A stretch of DNA of 64,000 nt from an uncultured Bacilli bacterium (GTDB lineage: Bacteria; Bacillota_I; Bacilli_A; RF39; UBA660). The position numbers and the translations under genes were made by a program. The notes under the pieces were generated by a model. That model was not told the origin of the DNA and did not search any database. It worked only from the letters and a program-made list of their open reading frames with translations. The stretch is from assembly GCA_934141245.1 (NCBI GenBank), contig CAKPCB010000003.1:66596-130595 (forward strand), written 5' to 3'. Positions 11,022 to 56,137 of this stretch are shown piece by piece (within the stretch, counting starts at the first letter, position 1; each line of letters starts with the position of its first letter).

Positions 11022-11814
11022 AATGGTTAAGATAAAATTCGATAATTCAAATAGGATTTATTATTTTAAATGTGATGAGTTAGCAATTTCTAAAAATCAA
11101 TATGTAGTTGTTGAAACTGATAAGGGTAAACAAATAGGCAAATGTATTAGTAACATTATAGAAATTGATGAGAATAGTTTTTCTATTCCAATTAAGGATG
11201 TTTTATCTATTGCTAGTGATTCCGATTTAATACAGCATAGAAAAAATTGCGATGAGTCAAAAAAAGCCTTAATACGTGCTAAAAAAATAGCAAGTGATTT
11301 AAATATGAATATGAACCTATTAAATGCATATTTTACTTTTGATCGAAATCAGTTAATCTTTAATTTTACTTCTGATGATAGGGTTGATTTCCGCGAATTA
11401 GCAAAAAAATTAGCTTCTATATATAAAACACGAATTGAATTAAGACAAATTGGTGTTAGAGATAAAGCAAAAGAAGTAGGTGGAATAGGGCCTTGCGGAA
11501 GATTTTTATGCTGTAATTTATTTTTAAATGAATTTGAAAGTGTATCAATTAATATGGCAAAGAATCAATATATTTCATTGAAACCTGATAAAATTAATGG
11601 GTTATGTGGAAGGCTTTTGTGTTGCTTAGAATATGAAGATGAACAATATACTATGTTAAAAAAAGAATTTCCTGCCATAGGGACTATATTTAAATATAAC
11701 AATGAAGATTTAAGAGTTACGGGACATAATCTTTTGAAAAGAACTATTGTTGCAGAAAACAGAATGAAAGAAAGTTTTACTTTAGAATTGAATGAATATG
11801 AAAGTATTAAATGA
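11014..11814 (+). CDS. ricT: PSP1-domain protein YaaT/RicT (stage 0 sporulation and RNase Y regulatory complex)
   Basis: Conserved Cys cluster GPCGRFLCCNLFL…GLCGRLLCCLEYE, typical of YaaT. Confidence 0.8.
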   Translation: MIKMVKIKFDNSNRIYYFKCDELAISKNQYVVVETDKGKQIGKCISNIIEIDENSFSIPIKDVLSIASDSDLIQHRKNCDESKKALIRAKKIASDLNMNMNLLNAYFTFDRNQLIFNFTSDDRVDFRELAKKLASIYKTRIELRQIGVRDKAKEVGGIGPCGRFLCCNLFLNEFESVSINMAKNQYISLKPDKINGLCGRLLCCLEYEDEQYTMLKKEFPAIGTIFKYNNEDLRVTGHNLLKRTIVAENRMKESFTLELNEYESIK

Positions 11815-12532
11815 TGTTGTTGGATATAAGAATTTAAAAATATATCAAAATACGGATTGGTTTTTATTCTCGTTAGACTCTGTTTTATTGCCTAATTTTG
11901 TAAGTTTGAATTTGAAAGATAAAGTAATAATTGATTTCTGTAGTGGGAATGCTGCAATACCTTTAATACTATCAAGAAAGACTAAAGCACAAATATTTGC
12001 AGTTGAGATTCAAAAAGATTTATGCGATTTGGCAAATGAAAGTGTTATATATAATAATTTGTCTGACCAAATTAAAGTTATAAATTGTGATGTCAAAAAT
12101 TTACATACTATATTCCAAAAAAACTCTGTAGATGTTATTACGTGTAATCCACCATATTTTAAATATGATGGTAAATTTGATTTCAATACTGATGAACACA
12201 AAACAATTGCTCGTCATGAAAAATTGATTAAATTAAGTGATATTGTTGCAACTGCTAATTATCTTTTGAAAAATAAAGGACGTATTGCAATGGTACATAG
12301 AACTGATAGATTAATTGAAATTATTAATTTATTTACATCAAATGATTTTCAAATTAAAAAGATAAGATTTATATACTCAAAGTCAGATTCAGAATCAAAT
12401 ATTGTTTTAGTTGAAGCTATAAAAAACGGTGGAATTGGTTTAAAAGTATTAAGTCCTTTATATGTACATAATGATGATGGTTCTTATACAGAAGAGGTTT
12501 TAAAAATGTTTGGAGATGATAATAATGAATAA
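11792..12532 (+). CDS. SAM-dependent methyltransferase, YabB/TrmN6-like (tRNA m6A37)
   Basis: Motif I (DFCSGNAAIPL) and NPPY (DVITCNPPYF). Occupies the yabB position. Confidence 0.65.
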   Translation: MNMKVLNDVVGYKNLKIYQNTDWFLFSLDSVLLPNFVSLNLKDKVIIDFCSGNAAIPLILSRKTKAQIFAVEIQKDLCDLANESVIYNNLSDQIKVINCDVKNLHTIFQKNSVDVITCNPPYFKYDGKFDFNTDEHKTIARHEKLIKLSDIVATANYLLKNKGRIAMVHRTDRLIEIINLFTSNDFQIKKIRFIYSKSDSESNIVLVEAIKNGGIGLKVLSPLYVHNDDGSYTEEVLKMFGDDNNE

Positions 12533-13376
12533 TATTAAAATACAAACAAGTTATGATGGAACTAGTAGTCTCTATTTAATACCAACTCCTATTGGAAATA
12601 TGAACGATATTACAAATAGGGCTATTGATACACTTAATATGGTTGATTTAATTTTATGTGAAGACACAAGAGTAACTGCAGAATTATTATCTAAATTAGG
12701 TATAAAAAAGAAATTAATACATTCAGATGATCATACTGAAAATAATTTAAAAGAGAAAGTTTTAGAATTACTTCAAAGTGGAAAAAATATTGGTCTTGTA
12801 ACTGACAGGGGAACACCTATTATTAGTGATCCTGGATATAAGATCGTTGAGTATGTTTCAAATAATGGTTTTAATGTTATAAGCTTACCTGGAGCTACGG
12901 CCTTTGTTCCGGCTCTTACCATGTCTGCGATTGCACCCTCTCCATTTTTGTTTTATGGCTTTTTAAATAATAAATCTTCTAAAAGGAAAAAAGAACTGGA
13001 TTCTTTAAAGCATCTTTCATACACACTTGTTTTTTATGAGGCGCCACATCGCATAGAGGATACTCTCAATGATTTATTAACTGTTTTTGGTGATAGAAAA
13101 ATTGCTTTATGTAGAGAAATATCAAAAAAATTTGAAGAATGTATAAGAGGCAGCATTTCTGAAGTTTTAGGACATATTGAAGGTATTAAGGGCGAAATAG
13201 TACTTGTTGTATCTGGCAACTTAGAAGATAATGATTTTTCTGAAATGACTTTAAGAGAACATGTTCAATTATACTTAGATGACGGTTTAAGTGAAAAAGA
13301 TGCAATAAAAAAAGTTGCTTTTGAAAGGAAGATTCAAAAATCAATTGTTTATAAAGAATATCATTTAAATAAATAG
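12525..13376 (+). CDS. rsmI: 16S rRNA (cytidine1402-2'-O)-methyltransferase
   Basis: LYLIPTPIGNMNDITNRAIDTL…ILCEDTRVT, tetrapyrrole-methylase fold. Confidence 0.85.
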   Translation: MNNIKIQTSYDGTSSLYLIPTPIGNMNDITNRAIDTLNMVDLILCEDTRVTAELLSKLGIKKKLIHSDDHTENNLKEKVLELLQSGKNIGLVTDRGTPIISDPGYKIVEYVSNNGFNVISLPGATAFVPALTMSAIAPSPFLFYGFLNNKSSKRKKELDSLKHLSYTLVFYEAPHRIEDTLNDLLTVFGDRKIALCREISKKFEECIRGSISEVLGHIEGIKGEIVLVVSGNLEDNDFSEMTLREHVQLYLDDGLSEKDAIKKVAFERKIQKSIVYKEYHLNK

Positions 13377-47604: not shown

Positions 47605-48354
47605 TTGATTGAGGCGATTTATATGATTAATTTTATTATATGTGATGATAATAGGGAGTTTTTAAAAAAAGAGAAAAATATTATTGATAAACTTATGATG
47701 AGATACGATATAGAATATAAGTGTATCTTATTTGATGAATATAATAAAGACTTTGAAAACATGGCCGCAAAGGATATAGGGTTTAAAATATATTTACTTG
47801 ATATTCAAACAAAAAATGGCTCTGGACTTGATGCAGCAAGATGTATAAGAGAAGAATTAGATGACTGGGTTTCAATCATTATAATAATAACTGCATTTAA
47901 TGAATTTAAATATGAGGCATTAGGTAACAGACTATACTTATTGGATTTTATTAATAAGCTAAATAAGTGTGATGAAAATCTTAAAGAAACTTTAGAAATT
48001 GCAATAAAACATTATGATAATAGAGAAAAAAGTTTAAGTTATGAATATAATCATATAATTAAAAAAATAGAATTTAGACATATTATATATATAGAAAAAG
48101 AACTTGATAGCAAAAGAAGTTTAGTAAAGACAACTTATGGAGCACATTTTATAAACAAAAATTTAAATGAAACAGAACCGCTTTTGGATAATAGATTTAT
48201 TAGAACAAGTAGAAGCATGATTGTAAACATTGATTATGTAAGTGAATTTGATATGAAAAACAATAAAATAATCTTTAAATCTGGAGATGTTTGCTATCAA
48301 GTCTCTAGAAAAAAGAAGAAGGAGTTACGGGAATATGTTAGAAACAACACTTAG
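47605..48354 (+). CDS. agrA: LytTR-family response regulator (AgrA-like)
   Basis: Receiver domain (FIICDDN…YLLDIQT) and C-terminal LytTR domain (…FIRTSRSMIVNIDYV…). Confidence 0.75.
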   Translation: MIEAIYMINFIICDDNREFLKKEKNIIDKLMMRYDIEYKCILFDEYNKDFENMAAKDIGFKIYLLDIQTKNGSGLDAARCIREELDDWVSIIIIITAFNEFKYEALGNRLYLLDFINKLNKCDENLKETLEIAIKHYDNREKSLSYEYNHIIKKIEFRHIIYIEKELDSKRSLVKTTYGAHFINKNLNETEPLLDNRFIRTSRSMIVNIDYVSEFDMKNNKIIFKSGDVCYQVSRKKKKELREYVRNNT

Positions 48355-49624
48355 AATTATAATTGCTTTCATAAACCCTATTGTTGGTTATCATATAATT
48401 AGAAATTTTGGGGGTAAAGATAAATCCGTTTCATTATCTTTTAGAGTTTTCTTAATTTTTGTTTTAGCAGTTTCAAACTTGCTGATATATAATGTATCCT
48501 ATAATTCTTTAATAACATTGATAAATTTTTTATTAACAATAATTGTTTATAAAGCTTTATTTAAAACAAGTTTATTTGAATCGATAATTTTATCCACAGT
48601 TTTGTTTATAATTTTAACACTTGCAGATGTTGTTGTTTCACTAATTTTAGTTTCGTTTGTTACTGCAGAGGAAGTTAGAAAGAATGTGTATTATATGTTA
48701 ATTGGAAATGTCTCTGTAGGATTGCTATCTTATGCATTATCATATGCTCCATTTATAAAAAATAATGTAAAAAAATTCGTTGAAAAAAGTGAAGATAATC
48801 ATAAGGTTAAAATAGTTGTCTTTTTTTTATTAACAATATTACTGGCATCAATTTTACTTTATGCAATATCAATTAACTATAAATTAATTAACGAATATAT
48901 ATTGATAGTAGTTATAATGTGCATTTTAATTGTTTTGTTTTTAATATACATAATGGAAAATAATAACAGAATGCAATTTGAAGCTAAATACCTTTCTTTG
49001 TTTGATTATTTTAAAACTTTTGAGGATATGATTGACAGTGACAGAGAATTTATGCATGAGTATAAGAACCAATTAGCAGCTATTAGAGAAATGAATAATA
49101 TAAGTTCTGTAAGAAAATATATAAATTCAATATTAGGCTATGTTGACAACTCTAAAGTAGATTATATATCTGATTTAAAATTTATACCCAAGGGTGGTGT
49201 AAAAGGGATAATATATTATAAACTAATGATTGCTAAGAATAAAAATATAAGTGTAACAATTAATGTTAATAAAAACATAAAAGAGTTAGAATTTATAGAT
49301 AGTGAAACACAAAAAAACTTAATTAAAGTTTTAGGAATTTGCTTAGATAATGCTATAGAAGCTAGTGAAGTTTCAGAAAAAAAGAATATTTCATTAGAAA
49401 TATACAAAATGTCTAATGAGATAAGAATTGTTATATGTAATACTTATAATAGTGATTTAGTTGATTTGAATAAAATTGAAAATAAAGGCTATTCTACAAA
49501 AGGTAAAGGTAGAGGTAATGGACTATATTACTTGTCAAAGGTTATAAGTTCTCAAAAAACAATTTCTACTGAATGGGTTATTATGAATGACTATTTTGTA
49601 AGAAAGATATTTATAAAAATTTAA
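48335..49624 (+). CDS. agrC: AgrC-like (HPK10) sensor histidine kinase
   Basis: Six to seven N-terminal TM helices, H-box (EYKNQLAAIREM), and a GHKL ATPase (…GRGNGLYYLSKV…). The start overlaps the 3' end of agrA. Confidence 0.7.
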   Translation: MLETTLRIIIAFINPIVGYHIIRNFGGKDKSVSLSFRVFLIFVLAVSNLLIYNVSYNSLITLINFLLTIIVYKALFKTSLFESIILSTVLFIILTLADVVVSLILVSFVTAEEVRKNVYYMLIGNVSVGLLSYALSYAPFIKNNVKKFVEKSEDNHKVKIVVFFLLTILLASILLYAISINYKLINEYILIVVIMCILIVLFLIYIMENNNRMQFEAKYLSLFDYFKTFEDMIDSDREFMHEYKNQLAAIREMNNISSVRKYINSILGYVDNSKVDYISDLKFIPKGGVKGIIYYKLMIAKNKNISVTINVNKNIKELEFIDSETQKNLIKVLGICLDNAIEASEVSEKKNISLEIYKMSNEIRIVICNTYNSDLVDLNKIENKGYSTKGKGRGNGLYYLSKVISSQKTISTEWVIMNDYFVRKIFIKI

Positions 49625-49670
49625 AAAATAAAGTCAAGGTTATTTATCTTAAATCTTGACTTTATTTTTG
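49623..49670. terminator. Bidirectional terminator between agrC (+) and agrD (-)
   Basis: AAAGTCAAG-(16 nt)-CTTGACTTT with A/T runs on both sides. Confidence 0.5.
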
Positions 49671-49677
49671 TTATAGA

Positions 49678-49797
49678 TTAGTCCATGAATTTTGGAGCTT
49701 CTGGTTCATCAATGAACAGCCACATGCATCCAACAGAAGCTGCTGTAGAAGCTAATAGTGCAACTGCTGCTAAAGCTACTGAAAATAATTTTTTCAT
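49678..49797 (-). CDS. agrD: AgrD-like autoinducing peptide precursor (39 aa, below the ORF-track cutoff)
   Basis: MKKLFSVALAAVALLASTAASVGCMWLFIDEPEAPKFMD. It has an amphipathic leader, a Cys-containing core (…GCMWLFI) and the conserved acidic AgrD tail (IDEPEAPKF, compare S. aureus …DEVEVPKEL). GGAGG RBS 6 nt upstream. Directly downstream of agrB. Confidence 0.6.
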   Translation of the reverse strand: MKKLFSVALAAVALLASTAASVGCMWLFIDEPEAPKFMD

Positions 49798-49839
49798 ATG
49801 CTACCTCCTTTACTTTTATATAAAAATGCTTTTGCATTT

Positions 49840-50430
49840 TTAACAATTTTTATAATTATTATAAGGCATCTTTAAAGCTTTATATGTTAATGGGTTTATC
49901 ATTATTGCTTCTATTATTAATGATATAAGTAAAGTGTTTGAAACAATTCTTGTATTTATTAAAAATATGGCTATTGAATATACTATGGACAAAATAACTG
50001 AAGCAATTTTTCTATATTTTCTTTTTTTTGCATTTGTCAATGGTCTTTTAATTGTATCCGCAGGTGCAAATACTAAATAATCTATTGTACAGATGATACA
50101 CAATATAATTTTAATAGTATTACTTATATAAATTTTAGAAATTAACAATGTAAGCCCAAATATAAGTAATATTGATGTTATTAGACAAATACTACTCTTA
50201 TCGGCATGTACTCCAAATGCAGGATATCTAATTATATTCAAGAAAACTAAAACTAAAATAATTTCTTTAAATATGTTAAATATAATTGATAGTACTAATA
50301 TGACAATTAATTTAGTAATTGTTAAGTATATTCCTTCTAAACCGTATCTGATTTTTTCAATATCAGTTTCATTATAGGCATTATACTTTTTTATTAAGTT
50401 AATTGAATTGTTTAAAAAAACTTCTTTCAT
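49840..50430 (-). CDS. agrB: AgrB-family AIP-processing membrane endopeptidase
   Basis: 196 aa, four to six TM helices, conserved His/Cys region (…RYPAFGVHADKSSICLITS…). AAGGGGAAAAAT RBS. Confidence 0.75.
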   Translation of the reverse strand: MKEVFLNNSINLIKKYNAYNETDIEKIRYGLEGIYLTITKLIVILVLSIIFNIFKEIILVLVFLNIIRYPAFGVHADKSSICLITSILLIFGLTLLISKIYISNTIKIILCIICTIDYLVFAPADTIKRPLTNAKKRKYRKIASVILSIVYSIAIFLINTRIVSNTLLISLIIEAIMINPLTYKALKMPYNNYKNC

Positions 50431-51640: not shown

Positions 51641-54133
51641 ATGAACTTATTAAAAAGATTATTTGATCATGAATATAAAGAATTAAAAAGATTTTCAGAA
51701 ATTGCTGATGAAATAGATGCGTTAGATGAGGAATATACAAAATTAACTGATTATGAATTACAAGCAAAGACTGACGAGTTTAGAAATAGACTTAAAAGTG
51801 GTGAAACATTGGATGATATTTTAGTTGAAGCCTTTGCAACTGCAAGGGAAGCTTGTTATAGAGTTATTGGTGAAAAACCATATTATGTGCAACTTCTTGG
51901 TGGACTTGCAATTCATTTTGGTAATATTGCAGAAATGAAAACCGGTGAAGGTAAAACATTAACATCTGTTATGCCAGCATATTTAAATGCTTTAACTGGT
52001 GATGGTGTTCATATTGTAACAGTAAATGAATATCTTGCTGATCGTGATGCAAAGTGGATGGGCAATATTCATAGATTTTTAGGACTTACTGTTGGAACAA
52101 ACTTGAGAAGTTTATCTCCAAAAGAAAAAAAAGAACAATATAATTGTGATATTTTATATACTACTAATAATGAATTAGGATTTGATTATCTAAGAGATAA
52201 TATGGTAGTAAAAAGTGAAAATAGAGTTCAAAGAGGACTTAATTTTGCTATTATAGATGAAGTTGACTCAGTTTTGATTGATGAAGCTAGAACTCCACTT
52301 ATAATTTCAGGTGGTGAGGTAAAGAGTAATAATTTATATATTGATGCAGATACTTTTGTAAAAAAATTAAAACCCGAAAAAGATTATTTATATGATGAAA
52401 AGACTAAATCAGTTACTCTTACAGAAGATGGTGTAAAAAACGCGGAAAAGAGTTTTAAGTTAGACAATTTGTATGATATATCTAATACTAATTTAGTACA
52501 TCATATAAATCAAGCATTGAAGGCTAACTATGCAATGAAGAACGATGTTGATTATGTTGTCCAAGATGGTGAAGTTGTAATTGTTGATCAATTTACAGGT
52601 CGTTTGATGAAAGGTCGTGCTTTTAGTGATGGTCTTCATCAAGCAATAGAAGCAAAAGAAGGAGTAACAATACAACAAGAAACAAAAACTTTAGCAACAA
52701 TTACTTTCCAAAATTTATTTAGAATGTATAAAAAACTTTCTGGTATGACTGGTACTGCAAAAACAGAAGAAGAAGAATTTAGAAACATTTATAATATGTT
52801 TGTTATACAGATACCTACTAATAAAGAGGTAATAAGGATTGATGAAGCCGATTTGGTTTATTCTACTCAAGCAGGAAAGTATAAAGCTTTAATTGATGAA
52901 ATAGAGAGAAGATATAATAAAGGACAACCTGTTCTTGTTGGTACAATAGCAATTGAAACCAATGAATTAATAAGCTCGATGCTTAAAAAAAGAAAAATAC
53001 CTCACGAAGTTTTAAATGCCAAAAATCATGCTCGTGAAGCTGAAATAATTGCAAAAGCTGGACAACCAAAATCTGTAACGATTGCAACAAATATGGCTGG
53101 TCGTGGTACAGATATTAAATTAACTGAAGAAGTTAAAGAAATGGGTGGTTTGTGTGTTTTAGGTACTGAAAGACATGAATCTAGACGTATTGATAATCAG
53201 TTAAGAGGACGTTCTGGACGACAAGGAGATCCTGGATTTACACAATTCTATGTATCTATGGAAGATGAGTTGATGGTTAGGTTTGGAACTGACAGAATTA
53301 AAAATATGCTTCAAAATTTAGGCTTTGCAGAAGACCAACCTATAAAAAGTAAAATGTTTACAAATGCCATAGCAACAGCACAAGCTCGTGTTGAGGGAAA
53401 TAACTTTGATATAAGAAAACAACTTCTACAATATGATGATGTTATGAATAATCAAAGAGAAATTATGTATGCTAAAAGAAATGAAATACTTGACAATGAA
53501 TCTATACATGATACAGTATTAAAATCTATAAAAGACCATATAACTGATTTTGTAGAATCTCATATTTTTCCAGAGGGTCATTTAACTGATAAAGATATAG
53601 AAGAAATTGTAGATTATGCAAACGAAAATTTGTTTAAGCAAACTTTAAATATTAAAGATGTTAAGACAAAAGATTCTAAAGAGTTAATAGAAATAATATA
53701 TAATATTGTTGTAGAAGAATATGAAGAAAAAATTAAAGATTTGCCATCTGAAGTTACAGATGAATTTGAAAAAGTAATAGTTTTAAGCATCATTGATCGT
53801 TATTGGACGGAACACATTAATACGATGTCTCATTTAAGAGAAGGTATTGGTTTAAGAGGATATGCACAAGATGATCCACTAAGAGCTTATACAATGGAAG
53901 GCTTTGATTTGTTTGATAAGATGATGCAAGGAATCGATAAAGATATAACTATACTTTTAATAAAATCTGAGATCAAGCAGAACATTGAGAGAAAAGAAGT
54001 TTCAAAAAAGCAAATAACCAACGATGGAAAGGATCATGTAAAACAAGCTCCTAAGAAAGTTCAAAAAATTGGAAGAAATGATCCGTGTCCTTGTGGCTCA
54101 GGCAAAAAGTATAAACAATGTTGTGGTAAATAA
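51641..54133 (+). CDS. secA: Preprotein translocase ATPase SecA
   Basis: 841 aa with DEAD-motor motifs (MKTGEGKTL, DEVDSVLIDEARTPLIISG) and a C-terminal Zn finger CPCGSGKKYKQCCGK. Confidence 0.95.
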   Translation: MNLLKRLFDHEYKELKRFSEIADEIDALDEEYTKLTDYELQAKTDEFRNRLKSGETLDDILVEAFATAREACYRVIGEKPYYVQLLGGLAIHFGNIAEMKTGEGKTLTSVMPAYLNALTGDGVHIVTVNEYLADRDAKWMGNIHRFLGLTVGTNLRSLSPKEKKEQYNCDILYTTNNELGFDYLRDNMVVKSENRVQRGLNFAIIDEVDSVLIDEARTPLIISGGEVKSNNLYIDADTFVKKLKPEKDYLYDEKTKSVTLTEDGVKNAEKSFKLDNLYDISNTNLVHHINQALKANYAMKNDVDYVVQDGEVVIVDQFTGRLMKGRAFSDGLHQAIEAKEGVTIQQETKTLATITFQNLFRMYKKLSGMTGTAKTEEEEFRNIYNMFVIQIPTNKEVIRIDEADLVYSTQAGKYKALIDEIERRYNKGQPVLVGTIAIETNELISSMLKKRKIPHEVLNAKNHAREAEIIAKAGQPKSVTIATNMAGRGTDIKLTEEVKEMGGLCVLGTERHESRRIDNQLRGRSGRQGDPGFTQFYVSMEDELMVRFGTDRIKNMLQNLGFAEDQPIKSKMFTNAIATAQARVEGNNFDIRKQLLQYDDVMNNQREIMYAKRNEILDNESIHDTVLKSIKDHITDFVESHIFPEGHLTDKDIEEIVDYANENLFKQTLNIKDVKTKDSKELIEIIYNIVVEEYEEKIKDLPSEVTDEFEKVIVLSIIDRYWTEHINTMSHLREGIGLRGYAQDDPLRAYTMEGFDLFDKMMQGIDKDITILLIKSEIKQNIERKEVSKKQITNDGKDHVKQAPKKVQKIGRNDPCPCGSGKKYKQCCGK

Positions 54134-54366
54134 GTTGATTTATAAGGGTTGTGCAGTAATACAGCAGTAAAAAAAGTCAAAAAGATAGACAAAAAACAGC
54201 TCAAAACGCACACTTGTGTGCAATTTGTGTGCGTAAAATAAAAAATTAATGCACACAATTGATTTAAACCTTATAAAACAAGGGATTTTTCAATGAACAC
54301 AAATTCACAATAATCAGCATTCGTGCTGATTTTTTCGTTCTCTAAAGAAATTTAGAGGAGGAAGTT

Positions 54367-54627
54367 ATGGGAAAAGTGAATGTAACAAAAGGAGGGAATT
54401 TATATCAATATAGATTTGAAATAGCTCCACAAAGGGGAGCTAGAAAATTTATTAATAAATCAGGTTTCAAGACAAAACAGGATGCTTATGTTGCTGGGAT
54501 GAAAGCATTTAATGAATATATGAATACAGGTAAAAAATTTTTTCTTAATACATGTCATAAATTGGTAATACTTAAAAATATTTTAAAATTAGCTCTCATC
54601 CACTTTCTTTATAAACAAAAAAAATAG
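54367..54627 (+). pseudogene. int: Integrase fragment: N-terminal arm-binding (AP2-like) domain only
   Basis: …GNLYQYRFEIAPQRGARKFINKSGFKTKQDAYVAGMKAFNEY… matches Tn916/phage integrase N-terminal domains. The ORF ends after 86 aa with unrelated sequence, and no catalytic domain follows. Confidence 0.5.
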
Positions 54628-54652
54628 ACACGAAATTATGTCTATTTATTTC
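54623..54652 (+). terminator. Hairpin after the integrase fragment
   Basis: AATAGACA-cgaaatta-TGTCTATT followed by a T-rich tract. Confidence 0.4.
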
Positions 54653-54804
54653 TCTCTACAATTTCTCTATAATATCATGTTAGGACATTTTTTTAGGACA
54701 GTCAACGGACAAAGTGAAATTTTTTAAATAACTGCTGTGCTGTAAAACTAAATTCCACCCTAATTTAAATAGAAGTGGAATTTAGTTTTGTAACTGAGCT
54801 TTTT

Positions 54805-55467
54805 TTACACTTTATTATTATTTAATTTTTTTAATGTAAGAAATATCAAACAAATCAAATTAAAGCAAACTATTACAATAGCTATCTTTATAAAATTATA
54901 TTTTAATTGTTCTTTTATTGATGAGTGAGTTTTTTCATTTATTTTTAAATAATAGTTTTCAAATTCATCATCACTAGTGTACATATTAGATATTTCATAA
55001 GGTAATTCTGTTCTAAAATTTAATCTAACCTTATTTTCAGATTCAAAAAATAAAATACACACTGTTTTCTCATTACTATATATAATTATCCTTCGATTTT
55101 CTAATATTAGATTAGATTGAATTTCTACTCCATTTTCCTTTAAAAATTGAACTAAATTTTCTATAGTATCATATTTAGCAAATACTGATACTTCTCCAAT
55201 AACTCGCTTACGAAAATCATTTTTATTTATTTGAATAATTGCATCATCATAAAAAGATAAATAATTATTATTTACAATTAAAGAATCCAAAAAGAAAGAA
55301 TCCAACTCAGATACTTTTATTTTATCATTATATTGATAAATTCCAATTTCTCCATTTTTGTAGTTATATTCTTTTTTTAACAAAAATATCCAACAAAAAT
55401 ATAATGTAAGAAAAATAATTATACTCAATATGATAACAACAATATATTTCTTTGAAAAGTTTAACAT
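54805..55467 (-). CDS. Hypothetical membrane protein (N- and C-terminal TM), cargo of the element remnant
   Basis: 220 aa with hydrophobic segments at both ends. No motif. Confidence 0.4.
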   Translation of the reverse strand: MLNFSKKYIVVIILSIIIFLTLYFCWIFLLKKEYNYKNGEIGIYQYNDKIKVSELDSFFLDSLIVNNNYLSFYDDAIIQINKNDFRKRVIGEVSVFAKYDTIENLVQFLKENGVEIQSNLILENRRIIIYSNEKTVCILFFESENKVRLNFRTELPYEISNMYTSDDEFENYYLKINEKTHSSIKEQLKYNFIKIAIVIVCFNLICLIFLTLKKLNNNKV

Positions 55468-55717
55468 AAAAGCTCACCACTAATATTATACTATAAAAAA
55501 TAGTCAGCAGTATATATTATTTATATACTCAAATTAATTAATCTTGGGAACGAATGGATACATTGTGTGCATTTTGTGTTCATTGAGAAGAAAACACATA
55601 GTAAAAATAGTACAAATAATACTATTTATATATAACCTTACCAGAACCATTCATCCCTTTGAAAACATATAATACAGATAGTTTTACATAGTACAAATAG
55701 TACTAGAAAAGGATGAA

Positions 55718-55761
55718 CTTGTGGAAGTGGTAAGAAATATAAGCAATGTTGTGGAAAATAG
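55718..55761 (+). repeat. Orphan duplicate of the secA 3' end, in frame coding …CGSGKKYKQCCGK* (attR-side copy)
   Basis: CTTGTGGAAGTGGTAAGAAATATAAGCAATGTTGTGGAAAATAG versus the secA terminus CTTGTGGCTCAGGCAAAAAGTATAAACAATGTTGTGGTAAATAA. Differences are mostly synonymous. A terminator hairpin follows. Confidence 0.6.
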
Positions 55762-55763
55762 CT

Positions 55764-55799
55764 CGCAAACCCTCATAAATAAAGGGATTGCGGGTTTTT
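55764..55799 (+). terminator. Probable ancestral secA terminator
   Basis: CGCAAACCCT-cataaataa-AGGGATTGCG + GGTTTTT, directly after the orphan secA tail. Confidence 0.5.
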
Positions 55800-56137
55800 C
55801 TATGATTACAATATTTAGATACTTTGAACTGTTGGCATAGTGATGGTCTAAACATAAAATGAGATAAGCTATATACTTTAAAATTTTAATGAAAAAGTGG
55901 TTAAATCATACTATAACTTCTGAATAACATACTATCAATTATATAACACTTCAAGGATTATTTAGTTATTATTACACTTATTATTATGAATTATCACATT
56001 AGATTATCATTTGTGGGTTTCTATGCTTTAGTACACTTTTAAAGCCTAAAAATACTTGCCATTAAAAACATTGTTTATATTGGCAAATGAGTTGCAATGA
56101 TAATTCATTGATTTTATAATCTACGTTAGAGGGAGGA

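Follow-up and report, generated by a model that had tools for sequence, protein, structure and literature searches.

A probable non-autonomous integrative element inserted into the last codons of secA in an uncultured Bacilli bacterium

In a 64-kb stretch of DNA from an uncultured Bacilli bacterium (the window), secA is followed by a second, free-standing copy of its own 3′ end. The segment from 54097 to 55724 is very likely a non-autonomous integrative element, similar to the cis-mobilizable elements (CIMEs) of streptococci, that was inserted into the last codons of secA by tyrosine-integrase recombination. We regard it as nearly certain that this module is a site-specific insertion at the secA end, as a preliminary description of the same DNA had proposed. 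In particular, comparison with a conspecific strain places the breakpoints exactly at the TGTGG of each tail. The truncated form is also likely to be mobile in trans through a related integrase. All coordinates are in window numbering and refer to the plus strand unless given otherwise.

Results

A variable segment bounded by two secA tails

The secA coding sequence (51641–54133, 830 aa) was identified as an open reading frame (ORF) with Pfam SecA_SW and SEC-C matches in its C-terminus. Its last residues are ...RNDPCPCGSGKKYKQCCGK, i.e. ...CPCGSGKKYKQCCGK, with the stop codon at 54133. The second, in-frame copy of the tail, which had been noticed before, is borne out by alignment: 54090–54132 and 55718–55760 are 79% identical across 43 nt. 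Copy 2 translates in frame as T-CGSGKKYKQCCGK*, straight after an in-frame TGA, and is therefore free-standing; no larger ORF contains it. A degenerate 30-mer for GKKYKQCCGK, allowing at most three mismatches, matches twice in the 64 kb, at the two tail copies, and in none of 100 shuffles. No third, decayed tail was found farther downstream in the window at this threshold.

Compared loci and contigs carry L-numbers (L001 etc.). Relatives were found by scanning species-representative genomes with the secA C-terminus, and a scan of metagenomes with the 58-residue integrase N-terminus gave 55 loci. Contigs that encode an identical downstream NPQTG protein represent conspecific strains, and these differ in content between secA and that gene. 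In one of them, L094, secA is identical to that of the window at 2441 of 2451 positions up to the tail (99.6%), and the downstream DNA is 99.9% identical from 55720 on. Between these flanks L094 has a module of another kind, which contains a 572-aa cadherin-like gene. The 239 nt up to the tail are identical save for the base just before it; identity collapses after TGTGG (54092–54096) and returns at the TGTGG of copy 2. Because identity breaks at both pentamers, the variable unit is bounded by them, and the final 12 codons of secA (54097–54133) belong to the inserted module. Other conspecific strains carry further modules ahead of the same resident tail and terminator. The related strains do not share this 1.6 kb, contrary to what would have refuted the earlier proposal.

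The core of the left attachment site (attL) is CTTGTGG (54090–54096), where host sequence switches to element sequence in five hosts and where the L094 breakpoint lies. It is followed by the element-borne replacement tail (..SGKKYKQCCGK*, 54097–54133), which is conserved behind five different secA genes. The core of the right attachment site (attR), again CTTGTGG (55718–55724), is placed by the return of L094 identity at 55720 and by host-specific DNA past TGYGG in five hosts. The displaced resident secA tail (55720–55761) has its in-frame TGA two codons upstream (55714–55716), and the same tail, with one mismatch, is present in conspecific strains bearing other modules.

Across L094–L101, the interval from secA to the NPQTG gene (window 54097–55719) is hypervariable between identical flanking genes. 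The alternatives include the cadherin-like 572-aa gene and a DUF4236 gene with a 238-aa gene, and each has a different conserved end of ~35 bp that adjoins the resident tail. In other species, no synteny was found for the genes farther downstream (NPQTG protein, sigma factor, acyltransferase), nor was a cross-species empty site with the same neighbours.

The same module in other host species

The interior of the module (54134–55719, 1586 bp) is 97.8–98.5% identical in L103, L105, L106 and L108, whose secA bodies are 70–73% identical and whose pre-tail sequences all differ. At attL of the five hosts, host sequence runs through TG(T/C)GG and is followed by CTCAGGCAA(A/G)AAGTATAAACAATGTTGTGGTAAATAA and the arm. 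At attR, the order is ...catagtacaaata(a/g)tactagaaaaggatgaac(a/t), then TG(T/C)GG, then a host-specific tail and terminator. Position 3 of the tail is T or C; from tail base 6 onward, the copy attached to secA is element sequence in all five hosts. The element tail itself carries one to three silent changes per copy behind the five different secA genes. In accordance with the earlier proposal, the end of the gene is reconstituted by the inserted DNA.

On this sequence evidence, the 1.63-kb integrase-less form is an element in its own right, which has passed in recent times between at least five host species. Assembly chimeras at the junctions seem unlikely, because the shared core is short and the flanks are divergent. 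In both L104 and L107, other elements stand in tandem with the module, and the tail ahead of it is a non-secA tail. In L104 the module directly follows an element with an intact three-domain integrase and a tail, and in L107 it lies 3.9 kb downstream of secA.

Contents of the module

Between the two TGTGG pentamers, the module is 1,628 bp long (1.63 kb; 54097–55724). It contains two ORFs of at least 60 aa, an integrase stub and ORF220, neither of which has a transfer-gene domain.

The stub (54367–54627, 86 aa) is integrase-homologous in codons 1–58 (54367–54540), and the rest is unrelated read-through. It matches Pfam Arm-DNA-bind_4 (PF14657; E 1.4e-5, 25 bits against a curated cut-off of 22.3) and is 76% identical, over 58 residues, to the N-terminus of the intact 439-aa integrase (Int) of L109 and relatives. 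The previous assignment as a truncated integrase N-terminal ORF is therefore upheld, all the more as full-length three-domain relatives lie right past secA elsewhere. A tblastn search with the post-N-terminal parts of integrases found no core-binding (SAM-like) or catalytic integrase domain anywhere in the window. Since these domains are missing and homology stops at about codon 58, the ORF is a fragment, not a functional integrase. No functional full-length integrase was found within 54097–55724.

Frameshifted and indel or deleted variants of the 86-aa ORF occur in other samples. Among seven copies, codons 1–58 show three synonymous and four non-synonymous changes, and the read-through part zero and five. 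We infer that the ORF is a relic rather than a working protein, because nothing points to selection. A stand-alone small protein family, suggested by first matches that were all short fragments, was considered and rejected: the contexts are frameshifted, truncated or contig-cut integrases.

ORF220 (54805–55467, minus strand) is the membrane-protein gene that had been described between the tail copies. It encodes an orphan protein of 220 aa with predicted N- and C-terminal hydrophobic segments. Most copies have 233 aa; a 1-nt indel at 54821 alters the C-terminus in the window. The protein has no credible Pfam, PHROG or PADLOC match, and a search of 5.8 billion proteins returned relatives of at least 80% identity only, which are near-identical copies. 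Seven copies of ORF220 differ by three synonymous and six non-synonymous changes. Between the integrase fragment and the 3′ end of this minus-strand ORF lies a long imperfect palindrome made of inverted repeats I1 and I3 (54727–54806), a candidate terminator.

Putative arm-type sites on both arms

Arm-type sites are a feature of heterobivalent integrases, for which lambda Int and Tn916 Int are the paradigm. The module has an integrase-proximal arm (P′-like; 54134–54366), homologous to the arm between secA and the integrase gene (int) in L109, L111, L113, L118 and L091, and a far arm (P-like; 55468–55719). The far arm ends in ...catagtacaaatagtactagaaaaggatgaact (55686–55719), a sequence that is kept directly before TGYGG in L009, L028, L103, L105, L106 and L108.

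The motif TTGTGTGCA occurs exactly three times in the window, always in the module (54214, plus; 54250, minus; 55563, plus), against an expectation of 0.26. The degenerate form TTGTGTKCR adds 54225 (plus), 54294 (minus) and 55574 (plus), and six of its nine window matches fall in the module. Four TTGTGTGCA-type sites lie in the integrase-proximal arm. Two of them, TTGTGTGCA and TTGTGTGCG, are in tandem, 11 bp apart (54214–54233); an inverted TTGTGTGCA follows (54250–54258, minus strand), and then an inverted degenerate TTGTGTTCA (54294–54302, minus strand), at the position of the second TGCACACAA of L109-type arms. The far arm has two, TTGTGTGCA and TTGTGTTCA, in tandem and 11 bp apart (55563–55582), ~146–157 nt before the attR core. 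The repeats had already been called arm-like, and this stands, since the layout recurs in at least seven modules and TTGTGTGCA is found in intact elements. Their coordinates are corrected here: the right pair spans 55563–55582, not 55561–55585, and the inverted copy 54250–54258.

The arms between secA and int in L109, L111, L113 and L118 contain three direct and two inverted copies of TTGTGTGCA, the same hairpin and the same ribosome-binding site (RBS). The same site layout, with subfamily-specific 8–9-mers, recurs in at least seven other tail-bounded modules. On the integrase-proximal side, two tandem 8–9-mers 11 bp apart lie ~80–90 nt past the stop, with one or two inverted copies nearer int. 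On the far side, most modules have two tandem copies ~145–157 nt ahead of the far tail. The arm motif is ATGTTTCCA in L004, L005 and L013, TGTTTGCA in L012 and module 3 of L042, TGTGCACA in L028, and TGTTCACA or TGTTCTCA in L058. In module 1 of L042, which likewise lacks an integrase, it is TGTGTGCA, and this module has the same motif in the same layout as the 55563–55582 pair. The repeat layout would be the expected signature of arm-type sites of a heterobivalent integrase, and we treat the repeats as putative sites of this kind.

Terminators and the neighbourhood of the two tails

The strong terminator reported past copy 2 is confirmed: a hairpin at 55760–55796 (−16.8 kcal/mol, z = −4.5) is followed by UUUUU, forming an intrinsic terminator (55760–55800). 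It is the resident end of the secA locus. Homologous terminators directly follow the intact secA of L038, L026 and L047, and follow the resident tails of L004, L028 and L042. The preliminary description had taken it for the ancestral end of secA. That it is the resident end holds, but ancestral status is not provable, because some other element types at the site also carry a tail and a terminator.

No terminator adjoins copy 1. In the alignment, an 11-nt gap deletes the left arm of the equivalent hairpin, so that there is no terminator directly past the secA stop. The first terminator-like structure past the stop is a hairpin with a T-run (54312–54337), just upstream of the int RBS. The hairpin proper (54312–54331; −8.6 kcal/mol, z = −3.6) is kept in L091 and in L109-type arms. 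Transcription of secA would run ~180 nt into the element, up to this hairpin.

Comparison of 54128–54175 with 55758–55802 reveals that the element tail is followed by sequence homologous to the resident terminator in its loop and right arm. In addition, a terminator-like sequence, AAACCTTATAAAACAAGGGATT, is located at 54266–54287, within the integrase-proximal arm between arm-type sites. It is 82% identical to the core of the resident terminator (55768–55789). Intact L109-type arms share a similar sequence; a bending-protein site and a captured terminator are candidates for its nature.

As noted earlier, prfB is absent downstream of secA: a regular-expression search found no release-factor GGQ motif in any frame of the window, and no release-factor gene lies within 10 kb downstream. 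Just upstream of csp-hpf-secA is an agr-like quorum-sensing locus (47623–50430, coordinates carried over from the L001 gene table) with a LytTR regulator, a HATPase_c_5 kinase, a 39-aa ORF and AgrB.

Intact integrases at the secA end

Full-length relatives of the stub, with Arm-DNA-bind_4, Phage_int_SAM_3 and Phage_integrase domains, lie ~230–260 nt past the secA stop on the same strand. A full-length int past secA is present in L029, L050, L109, L111–L113, L116–L119, L121, L135, L145, L149, L150, L154 and L156, and L017 and L049 have the same arrangement cut by a contig end. The integrases of L050 and L104 have all three domains, and that of L109 matches integrase PHROGs over its full length. 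No deposited phage integrase is more than 34% identical to these intact proteins. The closest solved structures include Tn1549 Int (6EMY, E 1.5e-10).

The first 10 kb of the L109/L050-type element encode the integrase, a replication-initiator-like HTH_36 protein, regulators, a MazF-type toxin and a sigma-region-4-like protein. No virion or conjugation genes were found in these 10 kb. An integrative and mobilizable element (IME) and a satellite are the candidate classes for this element. In L109, an IS3-type transposase pair (119 and 269 aa; 11403–12619) is located directly past the intact integrase and is missing from the syntenic L050 element.

L009 carries an integrative and conjugative element (ICE) with a relaxase, a sortase, xis (an HTH_17 protein) and int; this ICE adjoins a tail and another int stub. 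An ICE of the L009 type is a plausible vehicle for cis-mobilisation. In the pairs L109/L132, L111/L133 and L113/L123, each from the same contig, a second integrase and a free tail lie 64–74 kb beyond the integrase next to secA and point the same way. Very long tandem arrays at the secA site, or a large ICE there, would account for this.

A prophage remnant was considered and rejected. Phage records gave no DNA match save a mislabelled Listeria chromosome, ORF220 has no PHROG match, and the first 10 kb of the relative contain no virion genes. The search of phage DNA with the region gave three secA-tail matches; one was inspected, and this 'Listeria phage' record is Listeria chromosome (comF-hpf-secA). 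In the portion that was read, the entry (L090; OR846975.1, 'Listeria phage LM 4-11-1') has no phage genes. OR848568.1 has the same secA-tail match, and both records are probably mislabelled host DNA.

The secA 3′ end as an integration hot spot

By the scan of representative genomes, the window organism belongs to a low-GC uncultured gut lineage labelled Bacilli, Tenericutes, Mycoplasmatota or Erysipelotrichaceae in the records. Across all loci examined, 40 tail-bounded modules were found in 32 loci, with a median length of 2.2 kb. Integrase homology is absent in 22 of the modules, partial in seven, and of full-length coverage in 11. Within the window lineage, secA is followed on its own strand by extra free tails, up to three per locus; they are absent from the Lachnospiraceae loci of the same secA scan. 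At least three further end types precede tails. The cargo of modules at secA sites includes ABC transporters, sugar enzymes, acetyltransferases and surface proteins.

Int adjoins the tail on its downstream side in the window and lies upstream of a tail in L009 and L036. It is always co-oriented with the tail, and cargo occurs on either side. One module of L042 consists of an integrase gene alone, which is interrupted. Tail-bounded modules in tandem mark the secA 3′ end as a hot spot of integration throughout this uncultured Bacilli lineage.

Several metagenome assemblies show the same arrangement of secA and module as the window. The closest species representative, 88% identical in the scan with the secA C-terminus, has a contig that stops within the secA tail. 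Contigs L010, L003 and L002, from this representative and from some window-type samples, stop in or just past the secA tail or the int stub; an assembly break at a multi-copy or polymorphic element would explain these contig ends.

Discussion

The sequence comparisons show how the module is built into secA. The attP-derived end of the element brings a secA tail of its own and completes secA at attL, and the resident tail and terminator are displaced 1.6 kb downstream to attR. The crossover lies at or next to the TG(T/C)GG pentamer that opens the tail. This predicts an attP junction composed of the far-arm end ...ggatgaact, TGTGG, CTCAGGCAA...TAA and gttgatttataaggg, and an empty attB composed of secA ...ccgtgtcct, TGTGG, AAGTGGTAAG...TAG and the terminator. 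The module descends from, or is close kin of, elements that have an intact ~439-aa integrase, the same site and the same arm motif. Excision and integration in trans by an intact integrase, L109-type or a close relative, would be the most economical mechanism. Between cells, the module may be carried along by a transferable element that sits next to it, in tandem, at this site.

A broader reading, which we consider rather unlikely, takes the secA 3′ end as an integron-like cassette platform, where integrase-less modules with a family arm and a tail are stacked, swapped and spread by a few integrases acting in trans. In such a platform, the conserved 86-aa stub might function as a protein, for instance by competing for arm sites and so stabilising the module or keeping incoming relatives out.

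Unlikely, too, is a dead remnant that decayed in place: a full element would have entered secA in an ancestor of the strain, lost most of its genes and become immobile. Decay after insertion had been part of the preliminary description, and that part stands insofar as only ~58 integrase codons are left. The frameshift and indel variants of the ORF in other samples fit it as well. L091 (902–1372), from another species, has a TTGTGTGCA-subfamily arm past secA and an integrase truncated at another point (~aa 69), indicating that independent decay also occurs at the secA site. However, spread of the already truncated form is seen: four other hosts, whose secA genes are ~70–73% identical, have the same truncation and all of the 1.6 kb at 98% identity, with precise junctions, and conspecific strains bear different modules. 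The same deletion endpoint in five hosts is not the outcome of independent decay, which could not have reached it five times, and for the family this explanation is already largely refuted.

Spread by homologous recombination or transformation over the conserved secA tail and flanks, without an integrase, is improbable. Tails of 40 nt that are ~80–95% identical are present at every module boundary, and modules have seemingly been swapped among conspecifics whose flanks are ~99% identical, as this explanation would predict. Across species, however, where the flanks are only ~70–73% identical, the junctions coincide at one pentamer instead of being spread over the 42-nt tail. The arm-type sites in canonical layout on both arms and the intact integrases of the same subfamily at the same site also argue against it.

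The SEC-C motif (Pfam PF02810) occurs in non-SecA proteins too, and the second tail might on that account be the relic of an unrelated small SEC-C gene with coincidental domain homology; this is extremely improbable, given the in-frame stop two codons upstream of the motif without any larger ORF, the conserved element end known from many loci immediately upstream, the position of all 76 of 76 free-standing tails on the secA strand and downstream of secA or int, and the lack of an intact SEC-C-domain gene at the orthologous position in the relatives seen.

Several points weigh against a CIME-like element mobilised by a related integrase. The data are metagenome assemblies of uncultured bacteria. 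A truly empty site was not seen in the window species, where every conspecific strain seen has some module. The attR of the intact L109-type element lies outside the compared DNA; the predicted far arm of this element and its putative action on the module therefore follow only from the motif that both have and from an arm-binding domain that is 76% identical. The substitution counts in the 86-aa ORF and ORF220 are too few to decide on selection.

CIMEs have been defined alongside the ICESt1/ICESt3-type ICEs and the IMEs of streptococci, with which they share tandem accretions at target-gene 3′ ends (PMC5704250). Like these CIMEs, the module lies between an attL and an attR, no longer has a functional integrase or transfer genes, stems from an element with an integrase at the same site, and occurs in tandem with further elements. 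As for an ICE or IME ancestor of the same specificity, the arm, the motif and the integrase N-terminus of the module are homologous to those of the L109-type element at secA. Unlike CIMEs, the module is located at the secA 3′ end of uncultured gut Bacilli, is 1.63 kb long, keeps the arm-binding stub of int and is present in at least five host species. Mobilisation of the module, in cis or in trans, is presumed, and the accretions seen are the tandem arrangements in L104, L107 and L009.

Insertion into the last codons by a tyrosine integrase, with the product kept by an element-borne copy and a displaced copy at the far junction, is shared with Salmonella genomic island 1 (SGI1) at trmE (PMC8409611), and with streptococcal ICEs and IMEs at the ends of ribosomal-protein or tRNA genes (PMC4701971, PMC5357655). 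In the text of the retrieved surveys of Firmicute ICEs and IMEs, secA does not occur. We found no report of an attachment site in secA in the searchable literature, the coverage of which is incomplete, so that an earlier description is possible.

The intact relatives resemble the heterobivalent integrases of lambda, Tn916 and Tn1549 in their three-domain architecture and in the repeated arm-type sites on both arms, away from the core. In contrast, the arm motif TTGTnTnCA and the 11-bp tandem spacing of the putative sites are specific to the secA family.

The secA 3′ end is, apparently, a previously unreported docking site for a family of integrating elements. The attachment site is formed by the zinc-finger-coding last codons of an essential gene, and the integrase family that uses it occurs in abundant uncultured Bacilli of the human and animal gut. 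Because the tail is nearly invariant in protein, it is a broad-host-range landing pad comparable to a tRNA gene, which explains the tandem arrays and the strain-level cassette variation. Mobile DNA in these metagenome-assembled genomes can be delimited simply by means of free-standing secA tails, and the set of integrase, core and arm sites is a candidate site-specific integration tool for organisms so far without genetics. An integrase-less module of 1.6 kb that is 98% identical across five hosts provides a clean natural case of a spreading non-autonomous integrative element.

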